Shown: positions 8,433-54,206 of the stretch, piece after piece
Layout of the letters: every line of letters starts with the position of its first letter
Numbering within the stretch: position 1 is the first letter of the stretch
Assembly: GCA_035255945.1 (NCBI GenBank)
Contig: DATEZA010000319.1
Span: forward strand, 1,606 to 65,605
DNA: 64,000 nt
Source of the DNA: Thermoanaerobaculia bacterium
Lineage (GTDB): Bacteria > Acidobacteriota > Thermoanaerobaculia > Gp7-AA8
Reading direction: 5' to 3'
The notes under the pieces: model-generated
The model's input: only the letters and a program-made list of their open reading frames with translations
What the model was told of the DNA's origin: nothing
The model's database searches: none
Program-made: the position numbers and the translations under genes

Positions 8433-8461
8433 GGCCCGCTTCGGCGGGCCGTTTCGTTTTT
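8433..8461 (+). terminator. Rho-independent terminator downstream of the OPT transporter gene
   Basis: A GGCCCGC-TTCG-GCGGGCC stem-loop is followed by GTTTCGTTTTT, starting 8 nt after the stop codon. Confidence 0.7.
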
Positions 8462-8491
8462 GGGCGTATCCTTTAGAGACTTCGTCCACTT

Positions 8492-11400: not shown

Positions 11401-12040
11401 CACGATCGCCTGGGCGCTCGAAGGCGCGGCGCTGATCTGGCTCTTCCACCGCATCCCGCATCGCGGTCTGCTGATGTGGGGCGGCGGATTGCTCGCCGTC
11501 GTCTTCACGCGACTCGTGCTCAACCCTTCGGTGCTCGAGTATCACGCGCGCTCCGCAACGCGCGTTCTCAACTGGTACCTGTACACATACGCCGTCTGCG
11601 CGATTTCGATGTACGTCGCCGGCTATCTCTTTCCGCGCACGACGAAATGGATCGTCGCCGCGCTCAACGTCGCAGGCACCGTGCTGCTCTTCCTGCTCGT
11701 CAACATCGAGATCGCCGACTACTACTCGGCCGGCTCATCGCTCACCTTCAATTTCTGGTCGGCACCGCTCGCGCAGGTGCTGTCGTACACGATCTGGTGG
11801 GCGATCTTCGCGATCGCGATGCTCATCACCGGCATCGTGCTGCATCAGCGCGCGGTGCGTGTCGCGGCGATCGTGCTGCTCTCCGTCACGATCATGAAGT
11901 GCTTCCTCCTCGACCTCTCGCACCTCGGCGGCCTCTATCGCGTCGGCTCGCTGCTCGGCCTCGCCGCATCGCTCGTGCTCGTCGGATTGCTGTTGCAGAA
12001 GTTCGTCCTTCGCAAGGCGGCGGAGACGAGCGCGGCATGA
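8492..12040 (+). CDS. DUF2339-like giant membrane protein with an N-terminal TM helix, coiled coil and proline-rich spacer followed by about 30 TM helices
   Basis: The 1182-aa product has a proline-rich stretch PAPAPPPPPEPEPVPESVPVPIPEP...PPPPPPPPPP, then many hydrophobic helices. The architecture is typical of DUF2339 proteins. Its stop overlaps the next gene start (ATGA). Confidence 0.65.
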   Translation: MEFFVWLLATVLGVIALVSAKDAKRRATSAEDETQHLRIALENLGKRVAELRKMVQEPRAEPVAPAPAPPPPPEPEPVPESVPVPIPEPVFVAPEPEPVPVPEPVVIEPPPPPPPPPPITPPKPAAPAFDWESFIGVKLFAAIAGIALVLAAIFFLKYSVEHGWLRPPVRAAIGLLTGAVLIWICELRIARDYKATANSMHGAGIAILYATLFAMYARWHLIVALFAFGMMILVTAVAVWLSIRRESVFIALLGLLGGFATPWLLSTNENKPIGLFSYLLLLNVGLAVVAWRRRWTSLSIVSLIFTAIYQWGWISKFLTASQLPLAAGIFIVFAMAGAASLWVRRRDDGQQRTFDTAAIAAAILPLLFAIFTAAVPAYGSHYNVLFGFLLIVVAGLAAIAIMRGPAWLHLVGGLTTLLVFAIWRGTSFTPLAWPAILAWIVAFFALYLGTGTRFRTTAVYTAPALLFMFPTLVAANDFTSSPGLIFTVLFVLLAAAAIYAIRYENGIVYFLAAFCAIATEGIWSSRFLTHERLLQALAIYAIFAIFFLGVPILARRFNKQLKPAGALTALVLLSIGMLFFLDGGRIADASLWGLALLLAILNAGAMLEARLIRTPLMSIMAAVLSWVVIGVWWGAATIEISLMPALMVVGVFGVLIVAGNVLASRHSGDASSFEGSTYLGLAGHLFLLFVASQKSLAFPPWTVFAILGLLDLAIGVAAIYLKREKLMTAAIAASQLVLLVWATQSTVLPWPNVALGMIVAIVLFAMIWFFVDRRFGVAVIAGVFIGQFACVVAGLDAHLYATLLIAHALLIVALMVVAWITGQHKVLPVAAIVGAVATAAANLPAWQQQLTFAAVIYALFLAYPLLLGRRAKQSLAPYLAAVFASAMFFGFAYHALRVGGYEPYIGALPVVQAILMLVLLWRLLVWDRPARGLAGESPAPRMLSRLALVAATVLGFITLAIPLQLDKEWITIAWALEGAALIWLFHRIPHRGLLMWGGGLLAVVFTRLVLNPSVLEYHARSATRVLNWYLYTYAVCAISMYVAGYLFPRTTKWIVAALNVAGTVLLFLLVNIEIADYYSAGSSLTFNFWSAPLAQVLSYTIWWAIFAIAMLITGIVLHQRAVRVAAIVLLSVTIMKCFLLDLSHLGGLYRVGSLLGLAASLVLVGLLLQKFVLRKAAETSAA

Positions 12041-31587: not shown

Positions 31588-34011
31588 TTAAGCCGCGCCC
31601 TCGCCTTCGATCGGCGCTTTGTAGTCGCACTCCGCGTTGTTGCAGTACTCGATGTGCCCTTCGCGCTTCGTCGTCTTCTCGAGGAGATACGGCGCGCCGC
31701 ATTTCGGACACGGCTTGTTCAGCGGACGATTGTTCAGCGCGAACTCGCACTTCGGGTAACGCGAGCAGGAGTAGAAGATGCCGCGGCGCGAGCGGCGCTC
31801 GACGAGCTCACCTTCGCCGCACTGCGGGCACTTCACACCGGTCGGCTTGGGAGGCGTCGACTTGCCGCCGCCGATCTTGCGGATGTTCTTGCAGTCGGGA
31901 TAACCGGAGCACGAGTAGAACGGGCCGTAACGGCCGCTCTTGAGCACCATCTCCTTGCCGCAGTTCTCGCACGGCGGCTGCGGCTCGGTCGGGATGTTCG
32001 CCTTCATCAGGCGCGGATCCTTCGTGTTCTTGCAGTCGGGGTAACCGGTGCAGGCGTAGAACTGGCCGAAGCGCGAGCGCTTGAGCTGCATCGGCTTGCC
32101 GCATTTGTCGCAGATGATCTCTTCGCCCTCGGTCGCGACTTCCGCTGCGTCCCCCTTCGCCATCTCCTTCGTCGTCTTGCACTCGGGATAGTTGGAGCAG
32201 GCGAGGAACTCGCCGAAGCGTCCGAACTTGATCACCATCGGCGATCCGCAGTTCTCGCACTTCTCTTCCGTTTCGAGGCCCGTGCCCTTCACCGACTGCA
32301 TCTCTTTCTCGGCGCGGGCGAGATCGGTCGTGAACTTCGCGGAGAACTCGCGCATCAGCGCGGTCCACTCGATCTGGCCCTCTTCGACTTCGTCGAGCTC
32401 CTCTTCGAGACGCGCGGTGTAGGTCTCGTCGATGATGTCGCCGAACGACTGCTTGAGCAGCTTCGAGATCAGCACGCCGAGCTGCGTCGGAAAGAACTTG
32501 CCCTCGTGCTTGTAGGTGTAGTCGCGGGTCTGGATGGTGGTGAGGATCTGGCCGTACGTCGACGGACGGCCGATGCCGTTCTCTTCCAGCGCTTTCACCA
32601 GCGTCGCTTCGGTGTAGCGCGGCGGAGGCTGCGTGAAGTTCTGCTTCGTGTCGAGATTGAGCAGCTCGAGCACGTCGCCTTCGTTCATCGGCGGCAGCGC
32701 CTTGTCGTTCTCCGGCTTCTCCTCGTCATCTTCATCGCCCGCCGGCTCCTGGAAGACGGCGAGGTAACCGGCGAACTTGAGCACTTCGCCCGACGCACGG
32801 AAGGTGTAGTTGCCGTTGCGGATGTCGGCGTCGGTGACGTCGAACAGGGCCGGCTTCATCTGCGACGCGACGAAGCGGTCCCAGATCATCTTGTAGATGT
32901 TGAACTCTTCCCTGGTCAGGAAGTCCTTGATCGCTTCCGGCTCGAACTCGGTCGACGTGGGGCGGATCGCCTCGTGCGCTTCCTGCGCCTGTGCAGCTTT
33001 TTTGACCTTATAAACGTTCGGCTTTTCGGGAAGGATATCGGCGCCGTATTTCGTGCCGATATATTGTCTAACTTCGCCGAGTGCGTCGTCGGAGATGCGG
33101 ACCGAGTCGGTACGCATGTAGCTGATCAGTCCGACCAGTCCGTGCGGTCCGAGCTCCTTGCCCTCGTACAGCTTCTGGGCGATCGACATCGTCCGCTTCA
33201 CGGGGTACTTGTAGCGGTTGTACGCGGCGCGCTGCAGCGTCGAGGTGATGAAGGGCGGCGCCGCGGACTGGCGCTTTTCCTTGCGTGCGATCGTGTCGAC
33301 GACGAACTTCCCGCCCTTGACCGCGCTCTCTATCTGACGCGCGATCGTCTCGTTCGAAACGTCGGCTTTCTTGCCTTCGACCTTCGTCAGCTTGGCAATG
33401 AACGGCGGCGGAGTCTGCGCCGCGAGCTTCGCCGCGAACGTCCAGTACTCCTCGGGGACGAACGCTTTGATGTCGTCCTCGCGGTCCGTGATCATCTTCA
33501 GCGCGACCGATTGCACGCGTCCCGCGGAGAGACCGCGGCGGACTTTGTCCCACAGCAGCGGCGAGATCTTGTAGCCGACCAGGCGATCGAGCACACGGCG
33601 CGCCTGCTGGGCGTTGACCTTGTTCATGTCGATCTCGCCCGGATTCTCCATCGCCTTCTTCACCGCGTTCTTGGTGATCTCGTGGAAGAGCACGCGGCGG
33701 ACTTTTTTGGAGTCGGTGCCGAGGAGCGACATCACATGCCAGCCGATCGCTTCGCCTTCGCGATCAGGGTCCGACGCGATGTAGATCGTTTCCGCTTTCT
33801 TCGCGGCGGCTTTGAGCTCGCTCACGACTTTCTCTTTGCCTTCGAGGATTTCGTACTTCGGCTCAAAGGTCTCCTCGTCGACACCGAGCTCGCTCTTCGG
33901 CAGGTCGCGCACGTGACCGACCGAGGCCTTCACGATGTAGTCCTTGCCGATGAACTTGTTGATGGTCTTCGCTTTCGCGGGAGACTCGACGATGACGAGA
34001 TTTCTGGCCAT
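31588..34011 (-). CDS. topA: DNA topoisomerase I with C-terminal zinc-ribbon repeats
   Basis: The start was chosen at MARNLVIVESPAKAKTINKF (Toprim). The product has the active-site region and four C-terminal CxxC...CxxC ribbons. Confidence 0.9.
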   Translation of the reverse strand: MARNLVIVESPAKAKTINKFIGKDYIVKASVGHVRDLPKSELGVDEETFEPKYEILEGKEKVVSELKAAAKKAETIYIASDPDREGEAIGWHVMSLLGTDSKKVRRVLFHEITKNAVKKAMENPGEIDMNKVNAQQARRVLDRLVGYKISPLLWDKVRRGLSAGRVQSVALKMITDREDDIKAFVPEEYWTFAAKLAAQTPPPFIAKLTKVEGKKADVSNETIARQIESAVKGGKFVVDTIARKEKRQSAAPPFITSTLQRAAYNRYKYPVKRTMSIAQKLYEGKELGPHGLVGLISYMRTDSVRISDDALGEVRQYIGTKYGADILPEKPNVYKVKKAAQAQEAHEAIRPTSTEFEPEAIKDFLTREEFNIYKMIWDRFVASQMKPALFDVTDADIRNGNYTFRASGEVLKFAGYLAVFQEPAGDEDDEEKPENDKALPPMNEGDVLELLNLDTKQNFTQPPPRYTEATLVKALEENGIGRPSTYGQILTTIQTRDYTYKHEGKFFPTQLGVLISKLLKQSFGDIIDETYTARLEEELDEVEEGQIEWTALMREFSAKFTTDLARAEKEMQSVKGTGLETEEKCENCGSPMVIKFGRFGEFLACSNYPECKTTKEMAKGDAAEVATEGEEIICDKCGKPMQLKRSRFGQFYACTGYPDCKNTKDPRLMKANIPTEPQPPCENCGKEMVLKSGRYGPFYSCSGYPDCKNIRKIGGGKSTPPKPTGVKCPQCGEGELVERRSRRGIFYSCSRYPKCEFALNNRPLNKPCPKCGAPYLLEKTTKREGHIEYCNNAECDYKAPIEGEGAA

Positions 34012-39621: not shown

Positions 39622-41160
<1,539 letters not shown>

Positions 41161-41202
41161 ATGGTCTCCGTTAATTGGCCGTGAAACTGATTACGAATTT
41201 GT

Positions 41203-41736
41203 TCACGCTAACGACGCTCGGAATTTGTTGATTTTGCCGGCGACAGACGCGTCCCAGATCTCGCTTCCGACCTGAGCCACGAATCCGCCGAGCAGCGTCG
41301 GATCGGTGGTCAGCTGCAGCTCGACTTTCTTGCCCAGCTTCTTCTCCAGCGTCTGCCGGAGCTCGTTCTGTTCGTCCTGGTTGAGCGCATGCGCGGTGCG
41401 GACATCGGCAACCGCGATCTGCAGCGCGTCATTGACGTACTGCACGAGTGCATCGTTGATCGCGCCGAGGTCGTTGATTCGGTGGTTGCGGATCAGGACG
41501 TCGAGGACCTTCACCGCGAGATCGGAAAGACCGAGCCGCTTTGCGATCTCGGCGGTGACTTTCGTCTTCGCGTCAGACTCAAATCCGGGATTGGCGTAAA
41601 AGTCCTGCAGCTCGACCGACTTGGCGCGCTGCGCATCGAACTGCTCGAGTTGCTGGCGAAGCTCGTTCGCCGCGGCGGGCGAGCCGGTGACATCCATGAT
41701 CGCGCGGGCGTACGGGCGGGCGAAGCGGCGAATCAT
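41203..41736 (-). CDS. atpH: ATP synthase F1 delta subunit (OSCP)
   Basis: The 177-aa product has the position and pattern of the delta subunit and overlaps atpF by 4 nt. Confidence 0.8.
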   Translation of the reverse strand: MIRRFARPYARAIMDVTGSPAAANELRQQLEQFDAQRAKSVELQDFYANPGFESDAKTKVTAEIAKRLGLSDLAVKVLDVLIRNHRINDLGAINDALVQYVNDALQIAVADVRTAHALNQDEQNELRQTLEKKLGKKVELQLTTDPTLLGGFVAQVGSEIWDASVAGKINKFRASLA

Positions 41737-42374
41737 CGAACGGTCTCCAGTTCTTTGACGCTCTCGCTGAACAGCTTGTGGCGATCGGCGTCATTGATCC
41801 GCTCGCGCAGCAGCGCTTCGGCGCGCTCGCTCGCGAGCTCGCCGGCGTATTCGGTCAGGTCGTGCCGCGCGCGCTTGAGTTTGTTGTCGACTTCGTTGCG
41901 TGCCGCCGTGAGGATCTTCTGCGCTTCCGCTTCGGCCGCGGCGATCAGCTCGCGCTTCTGCCGCTCGCCTTCCGCCTCGGCACGCTCCCGGATCGCGCGC
42001 AGCTCGTCTTCGATTTGTGCGAGCCGCGTCTGAATGTCGGTTGCGAGTTGGTCGGCTTTCGCACGACGATCGCGCGCTTCGTCCGCTGCGCGGCGAATCT
42101 GTTCGCTTCGTGCCGCGAATGCGTTCTTGATCGGGCCGCCGATCAGCCATCCGAGGACGCCGAGGAACACGAGCATGTTCGCCAGCTTGAGGATCCACGC
42201 CGGGATTCCGAAGTAGGCCTTCGGCGCTTCGTGACCTTCCCCGTGCTCTTCGCCCGGATGCGCAACTTTGTGAGCGGCCTTCTCGCTGCCATGCGCGACA
42301 TCGTTCGCGTTCTGCTGCGCGAAGAGCGGCGCGGCAACGACAAGAAGAATGAGGAGGAGCAGGAGCTTCCGCAT
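41733..42374 (-). CDS. atpF: ATP synthase Fo subunit b
   Basis: The 213-aa product has an N-terminal hydrophobic segment and then a long charged coiled coil. Confidence 0.75.
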   Translation of the reverse strand: MRKLLLLLILLVVAAPLFAQQNANDVAHGSEKAAHKVAHPGEEHGEGHEAPKAYFGIPAWILKLANMLVFLGVLGWLIGGPIKNAFAARSEQIRRAADEARDRRAKADQLATDIQTRLAQIEDELRAIRERAEAEGERQKRELIAAAEAEAQKILTAARNEVDNKLKRARHDLTEYAGELASERAEALLRERINDADRHKLFSESVKELETVR

Positions 42375-42808
42375 CAGACCGCCCTCCCGAGAATTCGCTG
42401 CGCTGCTTCGCGAGCGAGCGATTCGGACTCGCTCACGATCTTCTCGCGGGCGGCCTGCACGTCGCGGCTGAGATGCTCGTCTGCGTCGGCGACGACGGCC
42501 TTCGCATCCGCATTCGTTTTGTCGATCATCGACTGACGCTGGGCCGCCGCCTCGCCGCGGTAGTGCTCGCGAACCTGCGCCGCATCGCGCTTTGCCGTGT
42601 GCAGACGCGATTCGATGTCGGCGGTTGCGGAGGTGAATCGGGCAAGCGCTTCTTCGTGGAGACGGTCTGCGGTCGTCGTTTCCGTCTCACGCGCTTCGAG
42701 CACGTCGTTGATCGGCTTGAGGAAGAACTTCCGCACGATCAGGTAATTCAAAAAGAAGATCACCATGATCGCGGGCAGAGACAGATCGGGCGTTAGATTG
42801 ATTTGCAT
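42374..42808 (-). CDS. ATP synthase Fo subunit b' (second b-type subunit)
   Basis: The 144-aa product has one N-terminal TM helix (LSLPAIMVIFFLNYLIVRKFFL) followed by a coiled coil, directly upstream of atpF. Confidence 0.7.
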   Translation of the reverse strand: MQINLTPDLSLPAIMVIFFLNYLIVRKFFLKPINDVLEARETETTTADRLHEEALARFTSATADIESRLHTAKRDAAQVREHYRGEAAAQRQSMIDKTNADAKAVVADADEHLSRDVQAAREKIVSESESLAREAAQRILGRAV

Positions 42809-42936: not shown

Positions 42937-43512
42937 GTGGCGGACGAAACCTACAAACGGATCCTATCCCGGGCCGACGAGTTCTTCGACTCCGTGATGC
43001 AGTCGCAGCCCCAGAGCCTGCAGTGCGGCCGCGGCTGTTCCCTCTGTTGTTACGGCCTGTTCGAGATTGGCGCAGCGGATGTTGCGGTGATTGCGGATGG
43101 CCTGTCGAAGCTGAATCCCGCGCGTCGCGACATGATCATCCGGCGCGCGGTCGACATCGTCGCGTCGAGCCGCCATCCCAACCTGCGCGAGTGCTCGCCG
43201 ATCGAGAAGGACGAGTTCTTCGAGCGCACAGCATCGACACCCTGTCCGAATCTCGACGACAGCGGCTTGTGCATGATCTACGAGCATCGCCCGCTCGTCT
43301 GCCGCACGTTCGGACTCCCGCTGCGCGACGGCGCGCGCTACATCGGCGACGTGTGCGAGCTGAACTTCGAAGAGGCGACGATCGACGAAAAGGAATCAGC
43401 CGCGTGGGATCTGCAGTGGGAGGACGCGCTCGGACCGGAAGACGAGTACACGATTCCGGAGGCGATCATCCTCGCGGCGCGCATGCGGAGCTGGCTACGC
43501 GTGTCATCCTGA
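42937..43512 (+). CDS. YkgJ-family cysteine-cluster (putative Fe/Zn-chelating) protein
   Basis: The 191-aa product has CGRGCSLCC and later CxxxC...C motifs. Its stop codon lies within the left arm of the family-A element (VSS*). Confidence 0.65.
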   Translation: MADETYKRILSRADEFFDSVMQSQPQSLQCGRGCSLCCYGLFEIGAADVAVIADGLSKLNPARRDMIIRRAVDIVASSRHPNLRECSPIEKDEFFERTASTPCPNLDDSGLCMIYEHRPLVCRTFGLPLRDGARYIGDVCELNFEEATIDEKESAAWDLQWEDALGPEDEYTIPEAIILAARMRSWLRVSS

Positions 43513-43587
43513 GCTGCGGAGACGGCGAAGGACCCGTTGATCGCGCTCGAGTCACGGTTCTTCGCGCTCTGCGGCGCTCAGGATGAC
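43503..43587. repeat. Family-A inverted-repeat element between convergent genes
   Basis: gtcatcctgagctgcggagacggcgaaggacccgt ... tcacggttcttcgcgctctgcggcgctcaggatgac. Both arms supply stop codons: for ykgJ on the plus strand and for the bactofilin gene on the minus strand. Confidence 0.8.
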
Positions 43588-43958
43588 ACCTTCAGATTCG
43601 CGACGTTGCCGCCCTTCGACTTCTCGCCCATCACGCAATTGCCCTGAAAAATCGCCCCTTCTTCGATGATGAGCGCCGGCGTGTCGATATCGCTGTAGAC
43701 CTTTCCGTTGCGGTGAATCTCGACGCGCTGGTCGGCGACGATCTTTCCGATGACGGTGCCGCTGATGGCGACGCGGCCGACGTGAATGTCACCTTCGATC
43801 TGCGCGCTCTCGCCGACGATGAGCTCATTCTTCGATGTGATCCGGCCGTTGAACCGCCCGTCGATCCGCATCGTGTCCTCGAACTCGAGCTCTCCTTTGA
43901 ATAGTGAGCCGCGATCGAGGAATCCGTTCAGTTCACCGCTCTTGCCCTTCGTCGTCAT
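43578..43958 (-). CDS. Bactofilin (DUF583 cytoskeletal polymer)
   Basis: The 126-aa product has beta-helical repeats (GRFNGRITSKNELIVGESAQIEGDIHVGRVAISGTVIGKIVAD). It overlaps the parB stop by 4 nt and ends VSS* inside the family-A element. Confidence 0.8.
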   Translation of the reverse strand: MTTKGKSGELNGFLDRGSLFKGELEFEDTMRIDGRFNGRITSKNELIVGESAQIEGDIHVGRVAISGTVIGKIVADQRVEIHRNGKVYSDIDTPALIIEEGAIFQGNCVMGEKSKGGNVANLKVSS

Positions 43959-44836
43959 CGTTTTCTCCCCATCAGATCGTCAAACAAGCGGATCAGATCT
44001 TCTTCGCTGGCAAAGCGGATGTGAATCACGCCGCCGCGGCGCTTGCGGTTTATTTCTACTTTTGTTCGTAAAGTCTTTTGCAGTTTTTCCTCGGCGTCGC
44101 GCGTGAAGACGTCCTTCTCTTTTTCCTTCTTCTCGACCCTTTGCGGCGAGCTCTCCGAGGCGAGCATCTCCGTCTGGCGGACATTGAGGTTGCGCTTCAC
44201 CACGCGGTCAGCGAGCGCCTCCTGCTTCTTCGGCGACTCCACCGCGAGAAGCGCGCGCGCGTGCCCCATCGACAGCTGTCCGGAGGCGAGCAGCTTTTTT
44301 ACGGTATCCGGCAACTTCAATAGCCTCAAGAAGTTAGCGACGGTCGAGCGCTCTTTCCCGACCTGTTTCGAGATCTCTTCCTGTGTGAGACCGAACTCCT
44401 CGTGTAATTGATGGTAGGCAAGCGCTTCTTCGATCGGGTTCAGGTCCTCGCGCTGGATATTTTCGATAAGCGCGATCTGGAGCGCGTCGCCCTCGCCCAT
44501 CATTTCTTTGACCACGACCGGAACCGTCGTCAGCCCGGCCTTCTGCGCGGCGCGGTAGCGGCGCTCGCCGGCGATCAGCTTGTAGCGATCGCCTGCGCGC
44601 GTCACGACGAGCGGCTGAACAATCCCGTGTTGTCTGACCGATCGCGCGAGCTCTTCGATCGACGCCTCGTTGAATGTCTTGCGAGGCTGGTACGGGTTCG
44701 GCGCGATCTGGTCCAGCGCGAGCTCCATCAGGCCGGCGCTCGGCACGGCTGGCGTTTGCGACGCTTCGGCCGGGCGCTGCGGGATGAGAGCGCCAAGGCC
44801 GCGGCCGAGGACTTTCTTATGATTCACCTCATCCAC
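43955..44836 (-). CDS. parB: Chromosome partitioning protein ParB
   Basis: The 293-aa product has the ParB-box motifs KVLGRGLGALI and YKLIAGERRYRAAQKAG, plus an HTH. Confidence 0.9.
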   Translation of the reverse strand: MDEVNHKKVLGRGLGALIPQRPAEASQTPAVPSAGLMELALDQIAPNPYQPRKTFNEASIEELARSVRQHGIVQPLVVTRAGDRYKLIAGERRYRAAQKAGLTTVPVVVKEMMGEGDALQIALIENIQREDLNPIEEALAYHQLHEEFGLTQEEISKQVGKERSTVANFLRLLKLPDTVKKLLASGQLSMGHARALLAVESPKKQEALADRVVKRNLNVRQTEMLASESSPQRVEKKEKEKDVFTRDAEEKLQKTLRTKVEINRKRRGGVIHIRFASEEDLIRLFDDLMGRKR

Positions 44837-44837
44837 C

Positions 44838-45608
44838 TCAGATCACGTTCTCCGCGCGTTGGATGAATTCCTTCGCGAGGTTGATGTACGCCTCGCTGCC
44901 GCGCGAGCGAATGTCGTACAGGATAATCGGTTTACCGAACGAGGGCGCTTCGCCCAGGCGGACGTTGCGAGGGATGATCGTCTCGTAGACCTTGCCCTCG
45001 AAATGCGTCCGCACCTCTTCCGCGACCTGCTTCGCGAGGTTCATGCGATCGTCGTACATCGTCAGCACGATGCCTTCCATTTCGAGCCCGGGGTTGAGCA
45101 GATCGCGCACGCGCTCGACGGTGTTGACGAGCTGCGAGATCCCTTCGAGCGCGAAGTATTCACACTGCATGGGGACGAGCACGGAGTTCGCGGCAGTCAG
45201 TCCGTTGACGGTGAGAAGGCCGAGGGATGGCGGCGAATCGAGCAGGACGTAATCGAATTCGCCGTTGATGTCCTGCAGTGCACGGCGGAGGTGAAACTCG
45301 CGACCGATCGCATCGCTCAGCTCGAGCTCCGCTCCGACAAGATCGACGGCCGAAGGCGCAATAAAGAATGTAGGAAGCTCGGTCTCCCGGATCACTTCCC
45401 GAATCTTCATCCCCTCAGTGAGGACGTTGTACATCGACTTCTCTTCGTTCTTGCTGATGCCGACGCCGGAGGTGGCGTTGGCCTGCGGATCGAGGTCGAC
45501 GACGAGCACTTTGCGCTCACAGGCCGCGAGCGAGGCTCCGAGGTTGATGGCGGTGGTGGTCTTGCCGACGCCACCTTTCTGATTCACGAGCGAGACGATC
45601 TTCGTCAT
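44838..45608 (-). CDS. parA: Chromosome partitioning ATPase ParA/Soj
   Basis: The start was chosen at MTKIVSLVNQKGGVGKTTT (deviant Walker A). It forms an ATGA overlap with the rsmG stop. Confidence 0.9.
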   Translation of the reverse strand: MTKIVSLVNQKGGVGKTTTAINLGASLAACERKVLVVDLDPQANATSGVGISKNEEKSMYNVLTEGMKIREVIRETELPTFFIAPSAVDLVGAELELSDAIGREFHLRRALQDINGEFDYVLLDSPPSLGLLTVNGLTAANSVLVPMQCEYFALEGISQLVNTVERVRDLLNPGLEMEGIVLTMYDDRMNLAKQVAEEVRTHFEGKVYETIIPRNVRLGEAPSFGKPIILYDIRSRGSEAYINLAKEFIQRAENVI

Positions 45609-46168
45609 TCTGCTGTTCCACGTGGAACGTTCAATGTGACGAGGAAGTTGGATTCGCCGCGCGGCAGCCGGAAGACTTCCCCTCTCTCGAATCCACCCAA
45701 TTCCGGCACGTCCGGCGAGCCCTGGAACAGCGCCACGCGGGCGCCCCTCGCCAAATGCGGCCCGAGCGACGGTACCCACTCCTCGGGATTTCCGACTGCG
45801 CGTGAAATGACGAGGGAGAACTCCAATTCAGGTGGGAACCGCGCCAGAGCGCGCGCCAATCTATCACCGTAAACTCGCGCGTTCAATCCGCATTCACGCA
45901 CGACATGCTTCAAAAATGCCCATTTTTTCTGGTCCGCTTCGACGAGATGAAACGTGGCGGCGGGCGAAGCGATCGCCATCGGAATCGCCGGAAGACCGCC
46001 GCCGGAACCGAAGTCGAGCACGTCGCCGGACGGTTTCAGGATCTCCGCGGCGGCCAGCGCTTCGGCGATGTGATCGTCGAGATGCTCCTTCGCTTCCGGC
46101 CCGATCAGGTTGATCTTCTCGTTCCAGGTGAGGAGAAGGCGTTGATAAACGCTAATCAGCGGATTCAT
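45605..46168 (-). CDS. rsmG: 16S rRNA m7G527 methyltransferase RsmG (GidB)
   Basis: The 187-aa product has the SAM-binding motif DFGSGGGLPAIP. Confidence 0.85.
   Translation of the reverse strand: MNPLISVYQRLLLTWNEKINLIGPEAKEHLDDHIAEALAAAEILKPSGDVLDFGSGGGLPAIPMAIASPAATFHLVEADQKKWAFLKHVVRECGLNARVYGDRLARALARFPPELEFSLVISRAVGNPEEWVPSLGPHLARGARVALFQGSPDVPELGGFERGEVFRLPRGESNFLVTLNVPRGTAE
45614..45629. promoter_or_regulatory. parS-like centromere site TGTTCCACGTGGAACG, located in the last codons of rsmG and 6 nt upstream of the parA ATG
   Basis: The core GTTCCACGTGGAAC is a perfect 14-bp palindrome. The 16-mer differs from the Bacillus subtilis parS (TGTTCCACGTGAAACA) at two positions. Confidence 0.55.
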
Positions 46169-48033
46169 CGAGCTTCAACGCCGCGACGGAGGTGCAAGCG
46201 GAGGATCGCGATGGCTGCCGGCGTGACGCCCGGAATGCGACCCGCCTGTCCGAGCGACGCCGGCCGCACGTGCGACAACTTCTCCGTCATCTCGCGCGAA
46301 AGCCCGGGCAGCGAGTAAGTCATCGTCGATGGAATCCGCAGCTCTTCGTCCGCCACGAGCTTCGCCGCCTCGCGCTGCTGGCGATCGATGTAGCCGGAGT
46401 AGCGAAGGTTGCTGACGACCCCTTCCCGCTCCTCCTCGCTGAGCTCCACAAATGCCTCGCTCACCTCCGGCAGCACCTCGGCCGCTGCGGCGATGAACGC
46501 GTCGACATCGAAATCGGGCCGCTGCATGAGCTTTGCGACCGTCGCTTTTTCGCTGAGCGCGATGCCCGCAGTTGCCAGCCAGGCGATTGTTTCGCGATCC
46601 GGAGTGAGGGCGGTTTGCGCGATGGTGCGTGCCCGGTGCATGCGCGCGATCCGTGCCTCGACGCGACGCTTCCGCTCGTCGTCGAGGATGCGGAGACGCT
46701 CGGCGATCGGCGTCAGCCGCTCGTAGACGGAGTCGCAGCCGAGAAGCAGCCGGTGCTCCGCGCGGCTGGTGAACATCCGATATGGCTCTTCCGTGCCGAG
46801 GGTGACGAGATCGTCGATCATGACGCCGGCGTAGGCTTCGTCACGGCGGAGGATCAGCGGAGCTTCACCGCGCACGAACTGCAGCGCGTTGATGCCGGCG
46901 ATCAGACCCTGCGCAGCGGCTTCTTCGTATCCCGACGTACCGTTGATCTGACCGGCGAGGAAGAGACCGTCGACACCGCGCACCTGCAGCGTCGGATCGA
47001 GCTGCTCCGGGTTCACGAAGTCGTACTCGACTGCGTAGCCGTAGCGGGCGATCGTCGAGTGCTCGAAGCCGGGCAACGAACGGACGACGCCGTCCTGCAC
47101 GTCTGGCGGCAACGAGGTCGAGATGCCGTTGAGGTAGAGCCAGGGGTGCTCGAGGCCTTCCGGCTCGACGAACACCTGGTGCCGTTCTTTGTCCGCGAAT
47201 CGAACGACTTTGTCCTCGATCGACGGGCAGTAGCGCGGACCGGTGGCCTTGATCTGGCCCGAGTACATCGGCGCGCGATGAAGGTTCGCGCGGATCAGTT
47301 CGTGCGCGAAGGCCGAGGTGTACGTCAGATGACAGAGCACTTGGGGCTGCGGGAGCGTATCGGTGAGGATCGAGAACGGTCGCGGCTGCGCGTCACCGGG
47401 GGCTTCGTTCAGCTTCGAGAAGTCGACGGTATTGCGTGCGACGCGTGGAGGGGTTCCGGTCTTCAGGCGGCCGAGCTGGAGGCCGAACGCGCGGAGCGAA
47501 TCTGATAGACCTTCCGCGGACGGCTCGCCGAAGCGGCCGCCGCGAGTCTTTGCTTCGCCCGAATGCATGAGCGCGTGGAGGAAGGTGCCGGTGGTGATGA
47601 CCACGGCGTTCGATTCGAGGACGGTTCCGTCGCCGAGGGTTACACGCATGCCGCGCGAGACATCAGTCACCGAACCTTCGATGATCGTGAGGTTCGGCTC
47701 GTCTTCGAGGATCGATCGCACTGCGTTCGCGTAGAGGTCGCGATCGCATTGTGCGCGCGGTCCCTGCACCGCGGGTCCCTTGGAGCGGTTCAGCACTTTG
47801 AATTGGATGCCGGCGCGATCGGTCGCTTCGCCCATCAAGCCGCCGAGAGCGTCGATTTCCTTGACCAGGTTGCCCTTCGCCAAGCCGCCGATCGCCGGAT
47901 TGCACGACATCCGACCGATCGCGTCGCGCAGCATTGTGATCATCGCGACGCGGGCTCCGCCGCGGGCGCAGACGCGCGCGGCCTCCGCACCTGCGTGGCC
48001 GCCGCCGATCACGATCACGTCGAAACGGGTCAT
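46165..48033 (-). CDS. mnmG: tRNA uridine 5-carboxymethylaminomethyl modification enzyme MnmG (GidA)
   Basis: The 622-aa product has the FAD-binding N-terminus MTRFDVIVIGGGHAGAEAA. Confidence 0.95.
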   Translation of the reverse strand: MTRFDVIVIGGGHAGAEAARVCARGGARVAMITMLRDAIGRMSCNPAIGGLAKGNLVKEIDALGGLMGEATDRAGIQFKVLNRSKGPAVQGPRAQCDRDLYANAVRSILEDEPNLTIIEGSVTDVSRGMRVTLGDGTVLESNAVVITTGTFLHALMHSGEAKTRGGRFGEPSAEGLSDSLRAFGLQLGRLKTGTPPRVARNTVDFSKLNEAPGDAQPRPFSILTDTLPQPQVLCHLTYTSAFAHELIRANLHRAPMYSGQIKATGPRYCPSIEDKVVRFADKERHQVFVEPEGLEHPWLYLNGISTSLPPDVQDGVVRSLPGFEHSTIARYGYAVEYDFVNPEQLDPTLQVRGVDGLFLAGQINGTSGYEEAAAQGLIAGINALQFVRGEAPLILRRDEAYAGVMIDDLVTLGTEEPYRMFTSRAEHRLLLGCDSVYERLTPIAERLRILDDERKRRVEARIARMHRARTIAQTALTPDRETIAWLATAGIALSEKATVAKLMQRPDFDVDAFIAAAAEVLPEVSEAFVELSEEEREGVVSNLRYSGYIDRQQREAAKLVADEELRIPSTMTYSLPGLSREMTEKLSHVRPASLGQAGRIPGVTPAAIAILRLHLRRGVEAR

Positions 48034-48048
48034 GTTCCACGTGGAACA
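48033..48048. promoter_or_regulatory. parS-like centromere site TGTTCCACGTGGAACA, a perfect 16-bp palindrome abutting the mnmG start codon
   Basis: This is identical to the 45615-45628 core. Its first T is the last base of the mnmG start codon (CAT on the plus strand). Confidence 0.55.
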
Positions 48049-48063: not shown

Positions 48064-49374
48064 CTACTTCCCAATGCAGAATTTGTGGAATATTTCTGTA
48101 AATACGTCATCGTGTGTGATCGCGCCGGTGAGGAGTGCAAGTGCGTTCGACGCACGGTAGAGGTCGACGAGCACGAGTTGTTCATCGTGCTCATCCATCA
48201 ATGAAGTCCGCGCTGCAATCAAAGCGGACTCGGCTTCCCCGACCGCAATCCGCTGCCGGTCGTTGACGAGCACGGCCGATGCTTCCGGTGCGGCGAACTC
48301 TTCGCGCACGATCGCATCGAGTTTCGCGAGCAGCTCATCAATGCCGGTATTTGCAGGGACACTGATTCCGATCTGCCCTGCCGGCGCGGCTGCGAGATCG
48401 ATCTTCGTGTAGACGCGAACCGTCAACGTGTCGAACGACTCCGGCTCGACGGGCGCCGTCGCATCAATCAGATAAAGAATGATGTCGGCGCGCCGCGCCG
48501 CTTCGCGCGCTCGTTCGACGCCGATGCCTTCAACGACATCGTCCGACTCGCGCAAGCCCGCGGTGTCGGCGAGCGTCACCGGCAGTCCGCCGATCTCGAT
48601 CGTCTCGCGCACGATGTCGCGCGTCGTGCCGGGGATCGGCGTCACGATCGCGCGCTCGCTGCCCACCAGGCGATTCAGCAGCGTCGACTTGCCCGCGTTC
48701 GGACGACCGAGGATCACGGCGTCGAGCCCGCGGGTGGTGGCCCGGCCGCGGCGGAACGTGTCGCCAAGTTCGCGCGTCGATGCCACCGCTTCATCGATCC
48801 GGCGCAGCGCATCGTCGCGCGTGATGAACTCGTACCCTTCTTCGCTGAAATCGAGCGCCGCTTCGAGTCGCGAGATTACGTGCAGCAGCGTTTCGCGAAT
48901 CGACGATGCGGTTCGTGAGAGCGAGCCTTCGAGATTCGACAATGACAGCTTCGCCTGCAATGGCGTGCGCGCATTGATCAGATCCGCGACCGATTCCGCC
49001 TGCACGAGATCGAGCTTGCCGTTCAGCACCGCGCGCTCGGTGAACTCCCCCGGCTCCGCCATGCGCGCACCGAGATCGACCGCCGCTTCGATCACCCGCT
49101 GCACGAGAAGCGGATTGCCGTGCAGCGTCAGCTCCACGAGATCGTTACCGGTGAACGATCGCGGCGCGACGTAGCGAATCGCCACGCATTCGTCGAGCAG
49201 TTCGCCTTTGTGCTGAAGATGCACGAAGGCGGCGTGACGCTCATCCGGAAGTGTGCCGGAAAGCGATTGCAGAATTGCAGATGAAAGCGGACCGTCGATG
49301 CGGACGATCGCGAGCGCGCTGCGGCCGACCGGCGTCGCCGGAGCGACGATCGTGCCGGCCGGTACGCTGGTCAC
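48064..49374 (-). CDS. mnmE: tRNA modification GTPase MnmE (TrmE)
   Basis: The 436-aa product has G-domain motifs ([19 protein letters not shown]) and the C-terminal CIGK motif. Confidence 0.95.
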
Positions 49375-50255
49375 GACTCGGAAGCCGCGCGGCGGATGAT
49401 TGCCACGCGCTTGAAGAATCCTTCGCCGCGCGATTCGGTGGTCACGTCGGCGTCATCGCGCAGCGTCATGTGCACGATGCGGCGCTCGATCGGACTCATC
49501 GCCGGCAGCAGGAACTCGCGGCCGTCCTCGCGCACGCGATCCGCGATCTCGTGCGCGCGCTGCTCGAGATCTTCGACGCGGCGGCCCTTGAAGTTCTCGC
49601 AATCGAGCTCGATGTCTTTCTCGACTCTGCGTCCGGTCAGCGACTTGTTCGCCAGTACCTGCACCGCATCGAGCAGCTCGCCGTTACGATCGATCATGCG
49701 CCGGCCGTCGGAGCCGTAGAGCCGCACGTGCACCTGCGTGTCGTTTTCCTCCGTGCGAACAGCGAGGTTCAGCTTTGCGAGAGAAAGTACTTGTTCGCAC
49801 CAGGTCCGAACCGCACCCGCCGTCTCCGACTCGGGACCCTGCTCCGGAATCTCGATCGCATCCGCGAACTGCGCGAAATCGCCCGGCTGCAGCGAATCGC
49901 GATCGGCGTCTTCATCGTCGTACTCGCGGCGGCGGCGACGGCCTCCGCGTGCGGGGCGTGAATCGCGTGACGAACCGGCACGATTGCCGGAACGTCCGCC
50001 GCCAGCGCCGCGTGGTCCACGTTCGCGCCGCGGCGGCGCAGCGGGACCCGCTTCGGCGACGGCAGCAACCGGCTGCGGAGGCGGTTCCGTCGCGTTCTCG
50101 TTCACTTCCGCCTCGATGATGACGCGCTTCACGCCGCCGAGGAATCCACGTTTCTCGGTGAGCACGGCGTGACGCAGCTTGTACCGCTCCACGCCGAACG
50201 TTTCAGCGGCGTGGTTCAGCGCTTCTTCGACATTCTTTCCTTCGAATCGCTGCAT
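49371..50255 (-). CDS. jag: RNA-binding protein Jag/KhpB (KH + R3H domains)
   Basis: The 294-aa product has N-terminal Jag_N-like and C-terminal R3H-like (ERRIVHMTLRDD) regions, in the conserved position after yidC. Confidence 0.75.
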   Translation of the reverse strand: MQRFEGKNVEEALNHAAETFGVERYKLRHAVLTEKRGFLGGVKRVIIEAEVNENATEPPPQPVAAVAEAGPAAPPRRERGPRGAGGGRSGNRAGSSRDSRPARGGRRRRREYDDEDADRDSLQPGDFAQFADAIEIPEQGPESETAGAVRTWCEQVLSLAKLNLAVRTEENDTQVHVRLYGSDGRRMIDRNGELLDAVQVLANKSLTGRRVEKDIELDCENFKGRRVEDLEQRAHEIADRVREDGREFLLPAMSPIERRIVHMTLRDDADVTTESRGEGFFKRVAIIRRAASES

Positions 50256-50265: not shown

Positions 50266-51927
50266 TTACGAAGGCTGTTCGCTGGGATGATCTTTCCACC
50301 ATTTATTCATGATCAACTGCTGAATGATGGAAAGGATATTTTGCACGAGCCAGTAAATCACGAGACCGCTCGGCAGCTCCTTGAAGAAGAAGCCGAAGAG
50401 GAGCGGCATGATCATGAACATGCGGCGCTGCGCAGGATCGACCGTGGTCGGCGTCAGCGTCTGCTGGACGAACATCGTGATGGTCATCAGGATCGGCGTG
50501 ATGTAGTACGGATCCTTGGTCGACAGATCGTGGATCCACCAGATGAATGGCGCGCCGCGCAGCTCGATCGCGCGTGACAGCAGGCCGTAGAAGCCCCAGA
50601 AAATCGGGAGCTGCAGCACCATCGGAAGGCACCCGCCCATCGGGTTCACGCCCTCCGTCTGATACAGCTTCATTACGTCCATGTTCATCTTCTGGCGCTG
50701 CTCGGGATCCGACTTCGCCTTCTTGTACCGCGACTTGATCGCCTCGACCTTCGGCTGCAGTTTCTGCATCTTGCGCATCGAGACGATGCTCTTGTGCTGC
50801 AACGGGTAGAGCACGATTTTGATGAGGATCGTGAGGACGATGATCGCGAAGCCCCAGTTGTGGGTCCAGGTGTTGATCCATTTCAGGGCGGTGAGGAAGA
50901 AGCGCGCGATCACGCCGAACGTGCCGAATTGGAGGGTGCGCTCGAGGCCGTATTTATCGACGACGCCGGTGTCTTTCGGACCGAAGAATGCGCTGCCGGA
51001 GACGACACCGTCCGGAGTCGCGTTCAGCGCGGCGTAGAGCTCGTGGCGCTTCTCGTTCTTCGCGCCGGTTTCCTCGACGCGACTCAACACGGCGCCACTC
51101 GCCTTCTCCGGCTTGAGGACCGAAAGGAAGTAGTTGTCTTCGATGCCGATGAATTGCGTGTCGGCGCCGTACGTCGCGAACGGATCGGCCTTGTCGCGCT
51201 TGATCAGCTTGAGACTGTCGTCGCGCTGCACGACCGCATCGCCGGTGATCGTCAGCTGGCTTTGTCCTTCATCTGCTTCGAGTGTGCGAATGCCGGGGCC
51301 GATCGCGACGCGGTACGGCATCGCCGGATTCACGGCGACCGCGAAGTGGAACATGTACTCGGGACCGACGCGGAACGTCTTCGACGCCGCGACACCGTTG
51401 TTTGCGTACTTGTAATCAATGATGGTCGTCTGGCCGTCGCGCGACTCCGTCACCTGCCAGAGCGCGGCATTGAGGCGATCGGCGACCGGCCTGTTCTGCG
51501 CGACGATGGCGAACGGGTAATCGATGCGTCCCGCGGCACGCGCCTTCACCAGATCGACATGACCGCCGCTCTTCGTGCGATAGCCCTTCAACTGGAAGGA
51601 AGTCAGCTCGGCGCCGCGATTCGAGAAGACGACGATGAAGTCGGGCGTCTCGATCCGGGTGTTCTCTTCGGCACTCGCGCCGATGTTCGCAACGATGGTC
51701 GTAGCGGCAACCGCCGGTTGCGGCGCAACTGCGGGAGGCGCGGCGGGTGCCGTGGTGGTGTTCGACGTCGTAGTCGCGGCGCTCGTCGAAGTCGTGCCGG
51801 TCGTCGATGTTGCGGTGACCGGTGCTTTCTTCGGAACGAACTGTGGAAACAGCCTCGGCGCGATCAGAGAGTAGCCGTAAAGGATCGCGAACGAGAGCAG
51901 AACGGCGATGAAGATTCGTTTTTCCAT
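50266..51927 (-). CDS. yidC: Membrane protein insertase YidC
   Basis: The 553-aa product has N-terminal TM and periplasmic domains and a C-terminal 5-TM core (GGCLPMVLQLPIFWGFY). Confidence 0.9.
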   Translation of the reverse strand: MEKRIFIAVLLSFAILYGYSLIAPRLFPQFVPKKAPVTATSTTGTTSTSAATTTSNTTTAPAAPPAVAPQPAVAATTIVANIGASAEENTRIETPDFIVVFSNRGAELTSFQLKGYRTKSGGHVDLVKARAAGRIDYPFAIVAQNRPVADRLNAALWQVTESRDGQTTIIDYKYANNGVAASKTFRVGPEYMFHFAVAVNPAMPYRVAIGPGIRTLEADEGQSQLTITGDAVVQRDDSLKLIKRDKADPFATYGADTQFIGIEDNYFLSVLKPEKASGAVLSRVEETGAKNEKRHELYAALNATPDGVVSGSAFFGPKDTGVVDKYGLERTLQFGTFGVIARFFLTALKWINTWTHNWGFAIIVLTILIKIVLYPLQHKSIVSMRKMQKLQPKVEAIKSRYKKAKSDPEQRQKMNMDVMKLYQTEGVNPMGGCLPMVLQLPIFWGFYGLLSRAIELRGAPFIWWIHDLSTKDPYYITPILMTITMFVQQTLTPTTVDPAQRRMFMIMPLLFGFFFKELPSGLVIYWLVQNILSIIQQLIMNKWWKDHPSEQPS

Positions 51928-52658: not shown

Positions 52659-52837
52659 TTAAGTAACCCCTTGAAAAGACAGCGTCAAAGAAAGCGCTGA
52701 GTATAGTCACCGCCCTCAGGATGGTCAAATTCAGGGCGGAAAGCATGCGCGCAAACTGGTCGAAACTCGACCTTATTCCAGTGATGGACAGGCGGGTTTC
52801 GCTGTCGTACACTCGCAGGCCCATCAAAAGGGCAGAG

Positions 52838-52868
52838 ATTTCCACAACTGTGGAAAACTTGTGGATTC
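52838..52868. promoter_or_regulatory. Cluster of three DnaA boxes in the dnaA promoter region
   Basis: atTTCCACA (52838-52846), TTTTCCACA (reverse strand, 52849-52857, a perfect TTWTNCACA) and gAATCCACA (reverse strand, 52860-52868). Confidence 0.7.
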
Positions 52869-52898
52869 TCAAAGAGATAGCTCCAGTCCCTCTCCCCC

Positions 52899-54206
52899 AT
52901 GAACGTCTGGAATCAGCTCCTCAGCAAGATCGAGCAAACCATTGACCGGACGGACTATGAAACGTGGTTCGCTCCGACGCGGTTTCTCGCTCGACGTGGC
53001 GATACGATCGATATCGGCATTCCGACGCAGAAGCATGTCGATGCCGTCCGCGACCGGTTCGGCTCACAAATTCGCGAGCTCCTGAACGAGCTCTCGTCGC
53101 CCGAGCGCGTGCAGGTCCACTTCGTCATCGAAGCGGCGGATGACGACCTCCCGATGATCACGCAACAGCCTCCGCGCGACGAGATGCCGTCGTCGACGTT
53201 CAACCAGCGCTACAGTTTCTCGACATTCGTCGTCGGCAGCTCGAATCAGCTCGCGTACGCCGCGGCGCTCTCGATCGCCGAAAACCCGTCCGGTTCGTTC
53301 AATCCCCTCTTTATTTATGGCGGTGCCGGCCTCGGCAAGACCCATCTGATCCAGGCGGTCGGTCAAAAGGTCCGCGAAAAAGATCCACGGAAGAAGGTCG
53401 TCTACATGTCGGCCGAAACCTTCGTGACCGATCTCATCACGTCGATCCGCTACGACCGCATGAACGCGTTCCGCGAGCGCTACCGCACGCTCGACGCGCT
53501 CCTGCTCGACGACATCCAGTTCTTTGCCGGCAAGGAGCGCACGCAGGAAGAGTTCTTCCACACGTTCAACGCGCTGCACGAAGCGCAGAAGCAGATCGTG
53601 TTCACCTCGGACGCTCAGCCGAAAGACATCCCCACGCTTGAAGAGCGCCTCCGATCACGATTCGAATGGGGCCTGATCGCAGACATTCAGGCTCCCGATC
53701 TCGAGACGAAGGTGGCGATCCTTCGCAAGAAAGCGGAAGAACGGAAGATCGATCTTCCGCAGGACGTCGCGATCTTCATCGCGGAGCGCGTGCGCTCGAA
53801 CATCCGCGAGCTCGAAGGACATCTGAACCGCGTCGCCGCGTACTCATCGCTCGCCGGTCATCCGATCACCGTCGATCTCGCGAAGGAAGCGCTGAAGGAT
53901 CTGCTGTCGAAAGAGAACAAGCCGATCACCGGACAGGAGATCCAGAAAGTCGTCGCCGCGCATTACGGCATCAAGGTCGCGGATCTGAAGTCGAAATCGA
54001 ACGCGCGGCCGATCGCGTACCCGCGCCAGGTCGCGATGTACATGTGCAAGCACCTCACCGATCTTTCGTATCCGGAGATCGGAAAGCTTTTCAACAACAA
54101 GCATCACTCGACCGTCATGTATTCGGTCGACAAGATCGATCAACTGATGCAGGACGATCCGCAGCTCGCGCGCACGATCGACATGCTCACGAAGCAGTTC
54201 CGGTAA
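52899..54206 (+). CDS. dnaA: Chromosomal replication initiator DnaA
   Basis: The 435-aa product has an AAA+ domain (GGAGLGKTHL) and the C-terminal DNA-binding signature. Confidence 0.97.
   Translation: MNVWNQLLSKIEQTIDRTDYETWFAPTRFLARRGDTIDIGIPTQKHVDAVRDRFGSQIRELLNELSSPERVQVHFVIEAADDDLPMITQQPPRDEMPSSTFNQRYSFSTFVVGSSNQLAYAAALSIAENPSGSFNPLFIYGGAGLGKTHLIQAVGQKVREKDPRKKVVYMSAETFVTDLITSIRYDRMNAFRERYRTLDALLLDDIQFFAGKERTQEEFFHTFNALHEAQKQIVFTSDAQPKDIPTLEERLRSRFEWGLIADIQAPDLETKVAILRKKAEERKIDLPQDVAIFIAERVRSNIRELEGHLNRVAAYSSLAGHPITVDLAKEALKDLLSKENKPITGQEIQKVVAAHYGIKVADLKSKSNARPIAYPRQVAMYMCKHLTDLSYPEIGKLFNNKHHSTVMYSVDKIDQLMQDDPQLARTIDMLTKQFR

Follow-up and report, generated by a model that had tools for sequence, protein, structure and literature searches.

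The window considered here (the whole analysed stretch of DNA, 64 kb, from an uncultured member of the Thermoanaerobaculia, Acidobacteriota) contains the gene order rpmH-rnpA-yidD-yidC-jag-mnmE-mnmG-rsmG-parA-parB, divergent from dnaA-dnaN-recF-gyrB, and is a classic origin region. The genes mnmE, mnmG, rsmG, parA and parB are all encoded on the minus strand, and the genes of the operon overlap as ATGA/GTGA (the parA ATG and the rsmG TGA, for example, overlap as ATGA). Two copies of a palindrome, which we regard as candidate parS sites, are placed within this cluster. The relevant features are:

43578-43958, minus strand: bactofilin gene (PF04519 at 3.6e-29), overlapping the end of parB
43955-44836, minus strand: parB (ParB_N, HTH_ParB and ParB_C; TIGR00180 above cutoff), a predicted parS-binding, CTP-dependent clamp
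44838-45608, minus strand: parA, encoding a partition ATPase of the Walker type, 256 aa long when translated from the ATG at 45608 (AAA_31, CbiA and ParA/MinD family models)
45605-46168, minus strand: rsmG (gidB; PF02527; TIGR00138 at E=4e-27 and 95.0 bits, just under its 99.5-bit cutoff)
45614-45629, no strand assigned: candidate parS copy 1, plus strand TGTTCCACGTGGAACG, gene strand CGTTCCACGTGGAACA, exact match
46165-48033, minus strand: mnmG (gidA; TIGR00136, 762 bits), its start codon fused to candidate parS copy 2
48033-48048, no strand assigned: candidate parS copy 2, 16-mer TGTTCCACGTGGAACA, palindromic throughout, exact match
48064-49374, minus strand: mnmE (NF003661, 396 bits)
52659-52898, plus strand: rpmH-dnaA intergenic region, together with dnaA a marker of the replication-origin region
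52899-54206, plus strand: dnaA (TIGR00362, 555 bits)

The two palindromic sites are 4.85 kb and 7.27 kb distant from the start of dnaA, and the DnaA-box consensus TTTTCCACA is present once in the rpmH-dnaA gap (52849-52857), a count that is not above chance. A cognate ParA/ParB pair is encoded immediately downstream of the sites: ParA carries a deviant Walker A motif (KGGVGKT) and has the same length call in the relatives (255-256 aa), while the motifs LGRGL and GERRYRA are located in ParB at residues 10 and 90, respectively (the roles of the N-terminal ParA-stimulating peptide and of the CTP-binding GERRxRA box are reviewed in PMC7022226). The PDB matches of ParB (E=1e-55 to 2e-56) include ParB of M. 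xanthus, Spo0J of B. subtilis and the ParB-parS complex of Caulobacter. Furthermore, alignment to 6T1F equates its parS-specificity R/G residues (R163 and G191) with R173 and G201 of Caulobacter, which are reported to be absolutely conserved in parS-binding ParBs and altered in Noc (bioRxiv 10.1101/724823), and the Noc model scores under its own cutoff on this protein. The bactofilin gene, which in every relative compared follows directly on parB, may encode an accessory scaffold of the partition complex; bacM of M. xanthus occupies the same position directly downstream of parAB (PMC5703909).

Sequence, position and rarity of the palindromes

The 14-mer GTTCCACGTGGAAC occurs in two exact copies in the 64-kb window (45615-45628 and 48034-48047), 2.4 kb apart, and the initial annotation, which had placed the palindrome with its flanks at 45614-45629 and 48033-48048, is exactly right in both sequence and coordinates. 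Its counts of two mismatches (copy 1) and one mismatch (copy 2) to TGTTCCACGTGAAACA, the B. subtilis form that it quoted, are also correct. Judged against the consensus TGTTNCACGTGAAACA, with the CACGTG core intact, copy 2 is a perfect palindrome and copy 1 departs from it by one outer-base mismatch. A base-composition model of the window predicts 2.5e-4 exact copies of the 14-mer (the probability of two or more being ~3e-8). Moreover, no further match to TGTTCCACGTGGAACA or TGTTTCACGTGAAACA at up to 3 mismatches was found elsewhere in the 64 kb (0.07-0.15 such matches being expected in the window from dinucleotide shuffles), and parS-like sites were absent both from the remaining 61.6 kb of the window and, beyond two per genome, from the ~15 kb inspected in each relative. 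By itself, the CACGTG core is present 15 times across the window.

Both copies are set against gene starts. Copy 1 falls within the final codons of rsmG, where it encodes V-P-R-G-T of the RsmG C-terminal tail, and precedes the parA ATG by 6 nt when measured from the end of the 14-mer (the distance originally noted, which holds for the 14-mer) and by 5 nt when measured from that of the 16-mer. Of the 30 nt that separate mnmE from mnmG, copy 2 takes up the 3' half, 15 nt downstream of the mnmE stop codon, and it does abut the start of mnmG as had been proposed: base 48033 is shared, closing the 16-mer and also supplying the A of the mnmG ATG. The sequence upstream of this start codon, read directly, contains no Shine-Dalgarno sequence.

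Conservation in relatives and likeness to known parS systems

For comparison we used the Thermoanaerobaculia loci L081-L088 (ParB identity 81-92%), of which L081 and L082 are near-identical, leaving 7 independent relatives. Each of these has exactly two sites within ~15 kb, in the same two places as the window. The parA-side 16-mer is 100% conserved in the 8 lineages (the window and the 7 relatives) as compared to 50-68% for its flanks, and rsmG reads it in two frames, the C-terminal tails of the relatives being either NVPRGT.. or TFHVEQ..; this 16-mer is under DNA-level purifying selection, independent of coding constraint. Its distance to the parA ATG ranges from 3 to 9 nt across the relatives. 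The mnmG-side site is fixed in position in all relatives, a constant 15 nt from the mnmE stop within the clade, in a setting where the 15-nt upstream spacer and the first mnmG codons diverge (a 3-codon indel included). It reads either TGTTCCACGTGGAACA or TGTTCCACGTGAAACA (the latter exactly so in four relatives), the sole variant being a change of GGAAC to GAAAC that is uncompensated in the other arm and that falls inside the known parS repertoire.

Both copies have counterparts among experimentally validated parS sequences. Copy 2 (TGTTCCACGTGGAACA) is identical to parS2/parS3 of P. aeruginosa and to parS of P. putida; in P. aeruginosa it represents the highest-affinity site, one copy of which suffices for segregation (PMC4368675). 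The plus-strand reading of copy 1 (TGTTCCACGTGGAACG) is the one given for the M. xanthus parS in a review table (PMC7022226). The P. aeruginosa site is, like the candidate sites of the window, origin-proximal, and it binds ParB with high affinity; the gene cluster of that species is also gidA-gidB-parA-parB, with an ATP synthase operon downstream. However, its four principal sites lie ~10-20 kb from parAB, outside the gid-par operon and unfused to start codons, and they are joined by six weaker ones, besides hundreds of half-sites. M. xanthus ParB (7BNK) is the best PDB match to the ParB of the window, with which it has the recognition helix GKERSTVAN in common, whereas its 22-24 sites (14 of which are seen in locus L008) are clustered several kb upstream of parAB, against two in the window lineage. 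The Spo0J parS of B. subtilis (consensus TGTTNCACGTGAAACA) is the same inverted repeat as that of the window. A pan-bacterial parS was reportedly described by Livny et al. in 2007. Sites of this B. subtilis and pan-bacterial kind are likewise located in the origin domain and often inside coding sequence, but B. subtilis has about 10 of them over the origin-proximal 20% of the chromosome, and the best known is inside spo0J itself, away from gene starts, in contrast to the gene-start positions seen here.

The arrangement recurs outside the Acidobacteriota. Across 80 phylogenetically diverse parA loci among the matches listed (ParAs 50-60% identical to that of the window), 35 contain sites with no more than 1 mismatch to TGTTYCACGTGRAACA; 74 of the 83 sites among these matches are upstream of parA, and they cluster within 1 kb of parA and at the mnmE/mnmG and mnmG/rsmG junctions. 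Loci of Alphaproteobacteria and Nitrospirota (L009-L011, L031, L037, L049, L060 and L065) resemble the window in having two sites within the mnmE-mnmG-rsmG-parA cluster, often 0-30 nt from a gene start, and among the matches listed the 16-mer abuts the candidate rsmG ATG in L009, L060 and L065. The junction is nevertheless a different one (the rsmG start in these loci, the rsmG end in the window), and most of them carry the T-variant GTTTCACGTGAAAC, unlike the window.

Regulatory, RNA-level and chance readings

The placement of the palindromes had led to the suggestion that ParB binding could influence how parA and mnmG are transcribed or translated, which our analysis does not support. As ParB binds duplex DNA, it cannot act directly on translation or on an mRNA ribosome-binding site. 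With regard to transcription, a scan of 43-53.5 kb with the sigma-70 consensus only gave no sigma-70-like promoter near either site or in the mnmE-parA interval (the matches were confined to the rpmH-dnaA gap, at 52.7-52.8 kb), which leaves ParB without an obvious promoter to block. Terminator-like sites were also not found by the promoter/terminator scan at or beside either palindrome, and the terminator reading and that of a ParB-repressed operator (of the type known from P. aeruginosa parS3/parS4 or from plasmid KorB/ParB operators) are, on this basis, unsupported. In B. subtilis, the loss of Spo0J leaves the expression of parS-adjacent genes unchanged (PMC7022226).

A regulatory role in which the parS sites would also serve as cis-regulatory operators (with ParB as a roadblock or silencer of read-through from rpmH to parB, exerting feedback on parAB and on mnmG/rsmG) has several points in its favour: the exact position is kept in all relatives despite the diverged spacer and mnmG codons, the genes neighbouring parS3/parS4 in P. 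aeruginosa are repressed by direct ParB-parS interaction (PMC5521831), and other phyla also set parS against gene starts, as at the candidate rsmG starts of L009, L060 and L065. Nonetheless, CTP-bound ParB slides off parS and a strong roadblock is not expected; the promoter scan came out empty near both sites; the spacing between the 16-mer and the parA ATG is variable; and the placement is more simply explained by the scarcity of free sequence among overlapping genes. We therefore consider such operators unlikely, while a transcriptional effect of ParB at the window sites is possible. The conserved joining of parS and the mnmG ATG hints mildly at regulation, but it is equally well explained by the few unconstrained bases of a compact operon. 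The more specific proposal of a clade-fixed, dual-use parS, at which ParB occupancy would physically gate transcription or coupled translation into mnmG-rsmG-parAB, appears distinctly unlikely; if true, the gating would constitute a built-in feedback by which assembly of the partition complex affects how the partition genes, and those of two translation-fidelity enzymes, are expressed.

We also weighed the possibility that the palindromes act at the RNA level, where a start-codon hairpin in the mRNA would, with no involvement of ParB, adjust how readily translation of mnmG and parA starts. The 20-nt RNA at the mnmG start folds as a 6-bp hairpin with an energy of -7.1 kcal/mol (z = -2.85), the A of the AUG being part of it, and mnmG lacks a Shine-Dalgarno sequence. 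However, any DNA palindrome that is transcribed will inevitably give such a hairpin, and the 60-nt contexts fold no better than shuffles (z = -1.4 and -0.9). Supporting covariation is absent (a covariation term of 0 for the mnmG site and an unfavourable one of +0.62 for the parA site), and GTTCCACGTGAAAC, found in four relatives (4/8 sequences), introduces an uncompensated C-A mismatch into the stem. Since this arm change is uncompensated, the variation obeys the rules of parS and not those of base pairing. The RNA-structure hypothesis was rejected on the shuffle-like folding of the context, the lack of covariation and the uncompensated G-to-A change, and we hold it to be very improbable. The GGAAC arm was rejected as a Shine-Dalgarno sequence as well, given that it stands 3-9 nt from the parA ATG, depending on the relative, and too near the start codon in the case of mnmG.

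Chance, or a target of an unrelated CACGTG-binding factor or restriction-modification system, might be entertained in view of the 15 CACGTG cores in the window, but is effectively refuted by the two exact 14-mers (P ~3e-8) and the perfect conservation of the parA-side 16-mer across relatives. The position of both copies in the parAB neighbourhood and the recurrence of the motif upstream of parA in many phyla (among the matches listed) also speak against it.

The sites as probable chromosomal centromeres

Taken together, these observations make it highly probable (roughly 0.9, as judged from sequence) that both palindromes belong, as chromosomal parS sites, to a canonical ParABS system of this uncultured lineage of Thermoanaerobaculia (Acidobacteriota). 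The initial annotation had put them forward as origin-proximal centromere candidates, a proposal that is now backed by their identity to validated sites, the adjacent ParA and ParB, the presence of dnaA 4.9-7.3 kb away and the strict conservation in relatives. ParB binding, clamp loading and segregation are what we infer for both sites. By analogy with better-studied members of the family, the adjacent ParB dimer would recognise each 16-bp inverted repeat via its helix-turn-helix domain, and CTP bound at the GERRxRA N-terminal domain would cause the clamp to close, leave parS and slide onto flanking DNA. Because clamps slide and the sites are 2.4 kb apart, both would nucleate one ParB-DNA complex, which would extend over the parAB operon and as far as the dnaA/oriC region, at a distance of 5-7 kb. 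Nucleoid-bound ParA-ATP, stimulated by the N-terminal LGRGL peptide of ParB, would then separate the duplicated origin regions; SMC loading may come next, as possibly may anchoring through the co-encoded bactofilin.

The location of these parS sites at gene starts is best explained by the compactness of the operon, since with genes overlapping as ATGA/GTGA a 16-bp palindrome can be accommodated only in the spacer between mnmE and mnmG or in the dispensable tail of rsmG. The exact fusion of parS to an mnmG ATG without a Shine-Dalgarno sequence is more than centromere function alone would call for; were it regulatory, it would add a small new twist to ParB as a modulator of transcription.

The parS sites described here are a textbook feature, real and conserved, and not new in kind. 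The 16-mer kept perfectly in two protein frames shows cleanly how selection on DNA can override coding sequence, and the occurrence of parS at gene junctions of the mnmE-mnmG-rsmG-parAB cluster in many phyla is a modestly useful comparative by-product. As parS sites, the two palindromes would indicate where an uncultured member of the Thermoanaerobaculia has its centromere, and hence roughly its origin (their value being mainly one of annotation), and would provide this acidobacterial lineage with a minimal two-site ParABS system that uses the parS sequence of Pseudomonas and Myxococcus.

Origin region and palindromes

The par/mnm neighbourhood is a tightly packed run of minus-strand genes, with rpmH, rnpA and yidD (minus strand) upstream of the yidC-parB cluster; dnaA, together with dnaN, recF and gyrB, diverges from the rpmH-parB genes:

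43578-43958, minus, bactofilin gene (PF04519), overlapping the parB stop codon
43955-44836, minus, parB
44838-45608, minus, parA
45605-46168, minus, rsmG
46165-48033, minus, mnmG
48064-49374, minus, mnmE
49371-50255, minus, jag
50266-51927, minus, yidC
52659-52898, rpmH-dnaA gap (240 bp), with divergent promoter-like hexamers and a DnaA box
52899-54206, dnaA, divergent from the minus-strand cluster

This layout is that of a canonical bacterial origin region. The sole consensus DnaA box in the window (TTTTCCACA, 52849-52857) falls inside the rpmH-dnaA gap (52659-52898); a cluster of DnaA boxes that would mark oriC was looked for and not found. Beyond parAB and the bactofilin gene comes an F-type ATP synthase operon (39622-42808, minus strand; assigned by synteny with the called genes of relatives), which in Pseudomonas likewise follows parAB; here a convergent CxxCxxCC (PF03692) gene (42937-43512, plus strand) separates the two. 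AT skew is strongly negative (-0.16 to -0.26) at 8001-12000 and 32001-34000, and near zero across most of the window.

The 14-mer GTTCCACGTGGAAC is present in two exact copies in the 64-kb window, which with their flanks read (plus strand) ctgcTGTTCCACGTGGAACGttca at 45614-45629 (copy 1, on the parA side) and gtcaTGTTCCACGTGGAACAgaca at 48033-48048 (copy 2, at the mnmE/mnmG junction). They are separated by 2.42 kb, and the dnaA start lies 4.85 kb from copy 2 and 7.27 kb from copy 1. Scanning the whole window revealed no third site within 2 mismatches of the 14-mer, and with up to 3 mismatches allowed, TGTTCCACGTGGAACA and TGTTTCACGTGAAACA matched only the two known sites (shuffled-sequence expectation 0.07-0.15). 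Base composition predicts 2.5e-4 exact 14-mers, so that the probability of two or more is ~3e-8. These scans bear out all that the initial annotation described of the two palindromes, down to their positions and the number of mismatches that each has to the B. subtilis site.

Motif identity and cognate proteins

Compared as 16-mers with TGTTCCACGTGGAACA, which is the P. putida parS, copy 1 has 1 mismatch and copy 2 has 0. The same sequence is P. aeruginosa parS2/parS3, the highest-affinity ParB site there; one copy near oriC suffices for segregation and is also required for it (PMC4368675). TGTTCCACGTGGAACG is given as the M. xanthus parS in a review table (PMC7022226). The encoded ParB (domains ParB_N, HTH_ParB and ParB_C) passes the ParB model, stays below the Noc cutoff and aligns (E ~1e-55) to M. 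xanthus ParB, B. subtilis Spo0J and the protein of the Caulobacter ParB-parS co-crystal; it is 100% identical to a database entry labelled a Thermoanaerobaculia (Acidobacteriota) MAG protein and has more than 100 metagenomic relatives (81-99% identity). It carries LGRGL at residue 10 (the ParA-stimulating peptide) and a GERRYRA box at residue 90 (CTP-binding; roles from PMC7022226), while its R163 and G191 occupy the positions of Caulobacter R173 and G201, which Jalal et al. (bioRxiv 10.1101/724823) report to be invariant among ParBs that bind parS and replaced by Q and R in Noc. In ParA the Walker A motif is of the deviant type, KGGVGKT.

Conservation and placement of the sites

We compared eight loci from Thermoanaerobaculia relatives (L081-L088; ParB 81-92% identical), which represent seven independent lineages (L081 and L082 being near-identical). 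Synteny, including the bactofilin gene, is the same in all eight, and each locus has exactly two sites in the same two places (up to 3 mismatches, ~15 kb scanned). The parA-side 16-mer is 100% conserved, whereas in its flanks identity to the majority is 50-63%. Read on the gene strand, copy 1 is CGTTCCACGTGGAACA; it codes for V-P-R-G-T within the last seven codons of rsmG, whose TGA is overlapped by the parA ATG. Across lineages, rsmG reads the site as ..NVPRGT.. in four and as ..TFHVEQ.. (a different reading frame) in four. Since two rsmG frames run over an invariant 16-mer, what is conserved here is the DNA and not the peptide.

Copy 2 takes up the 3' half of the 30 nt between mnmE and mnmG; its sixteenth base, 48033, doubles as the A of the mnmG ATG. 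Among relatives the stretch from the mnmE stop to parS is constant in length (15 nt) and essentially random in sequence, and the first mnmG codons show a 3-codon indel; despite these diverged surroundings parS remains joined to the ATG, with a 1-nt shift in one lineage. The fusion leaves no room for a Shine-Dalgarno sequence, and mnmG has none (several neighbouring genes have GGAG), which, together with the 15-nt spacer followed by parS, implies Shine-Dalgarno-independent initiation or re-initiation after mnmE termination. A simpler account of the placement than regulation by ParB is that, because the operon genes overlap (ATGA/GTGA), free bases exist only in the spacer and in the rsmG tail, which is dispensable.

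A survey of 80 diverse parA loci found one or more sites within 1 mismatch of TGTTYCACGTGRAACA in 35 of them; 74 of the 83 survey sites are upstream of parA, mostly <1 kb away or at mnmE/mnmG and mnmG/rsmG junctions. Perfect or near-perfect parS 16-mers directly abut a candidate rsmG ATG in Bartonella (L009:4815), a Parvibaculaceae MAG (L060:5330) and a Nitrospirales MAG (L065:5293). Hugging a gene junction is thus a widespread habit of parS, not peculiar to the window. Many alphaproteobacteria have parS at both junctions. Upstream of parA, a Gemmatimonadales MAG holds the variant palindrome CGTTGCACGTGCAACA twice (L018:5922 and 5968), and an Acidobacteriaceae MAG (L062:5731-5854) holds three copies of TGTTCCCCGTGGAACA and a more degenerate fourth, with CCCGTG in place of the CACGTG core; both may be lineage-specific parS variants.

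The bactofilin gene sits directly downstream of parB in 8/8 Thermoanaerobaculia loci. In M. xanthus, bacM is likewise placed (PMC5703909) and bactofilins act as a scaffold for ParABS, a hint of a partition system linked to bactofilin in Acidobacteriota.

Regulatory and RNA-hairpin readings

The initial annotation also proposed that ParB might modulate transcription or translation of parA and mnmG. The conserved fusion of parS to the mnmG start codon is only suggestive of such regulation. Published evidence is mixed: adjacent promoters are repressed by ParB-parS3/4 in P. aeruginosa (PMC5521831), but loss of Spo0J in B. subtilis leaves parS-adjacent genes unaffected, and only small effects are seen in V. 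cholerae and S. pneumoniae (PMC7022226). A promoter scan for the sigma-70 consensus detected no promoter-like element in the mnmE-parA interval (hits in 43-53.5 kb fell only in the rpmH-dnaA gap), consistent with one long operon, and a terminator scan found no terminator-like site at either palindrome. ParB binds duplex DNA and therefore cannot act directly on a ribosome-binding site. Regulation is unsupported, and its translational form is mechanistically implausible.

That the palindromes act as mRNA hairpins at start codons fares worse: the RNA can form a 6-bp hairpin (-7.1 kcal/mol) taking in the A of AUG, but the 60-nt contexts fold no better than shuffles, alignment folding gives no supporting covariation, and the sole internal variant of the mnmG site (GGAAC to GAAAC, four lineages), uncompensated in the opposite arm, would break the stem. 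The variant gives TGTTCCACGTGAAACA, the B. subtilis form quoted in the initial annotation; site variation follows parS rules, not pairing rules.

We consider the palindromes to be canonical origin-proximal predicted parS sites of a standard ParABS system, and the centromere call made at the outset to be right, given the match to a validated sequence, the cognate ParB and ParA, the proximity to dnaA and the conservation in relatives. The pair adds to a thoroughly known kind of site.
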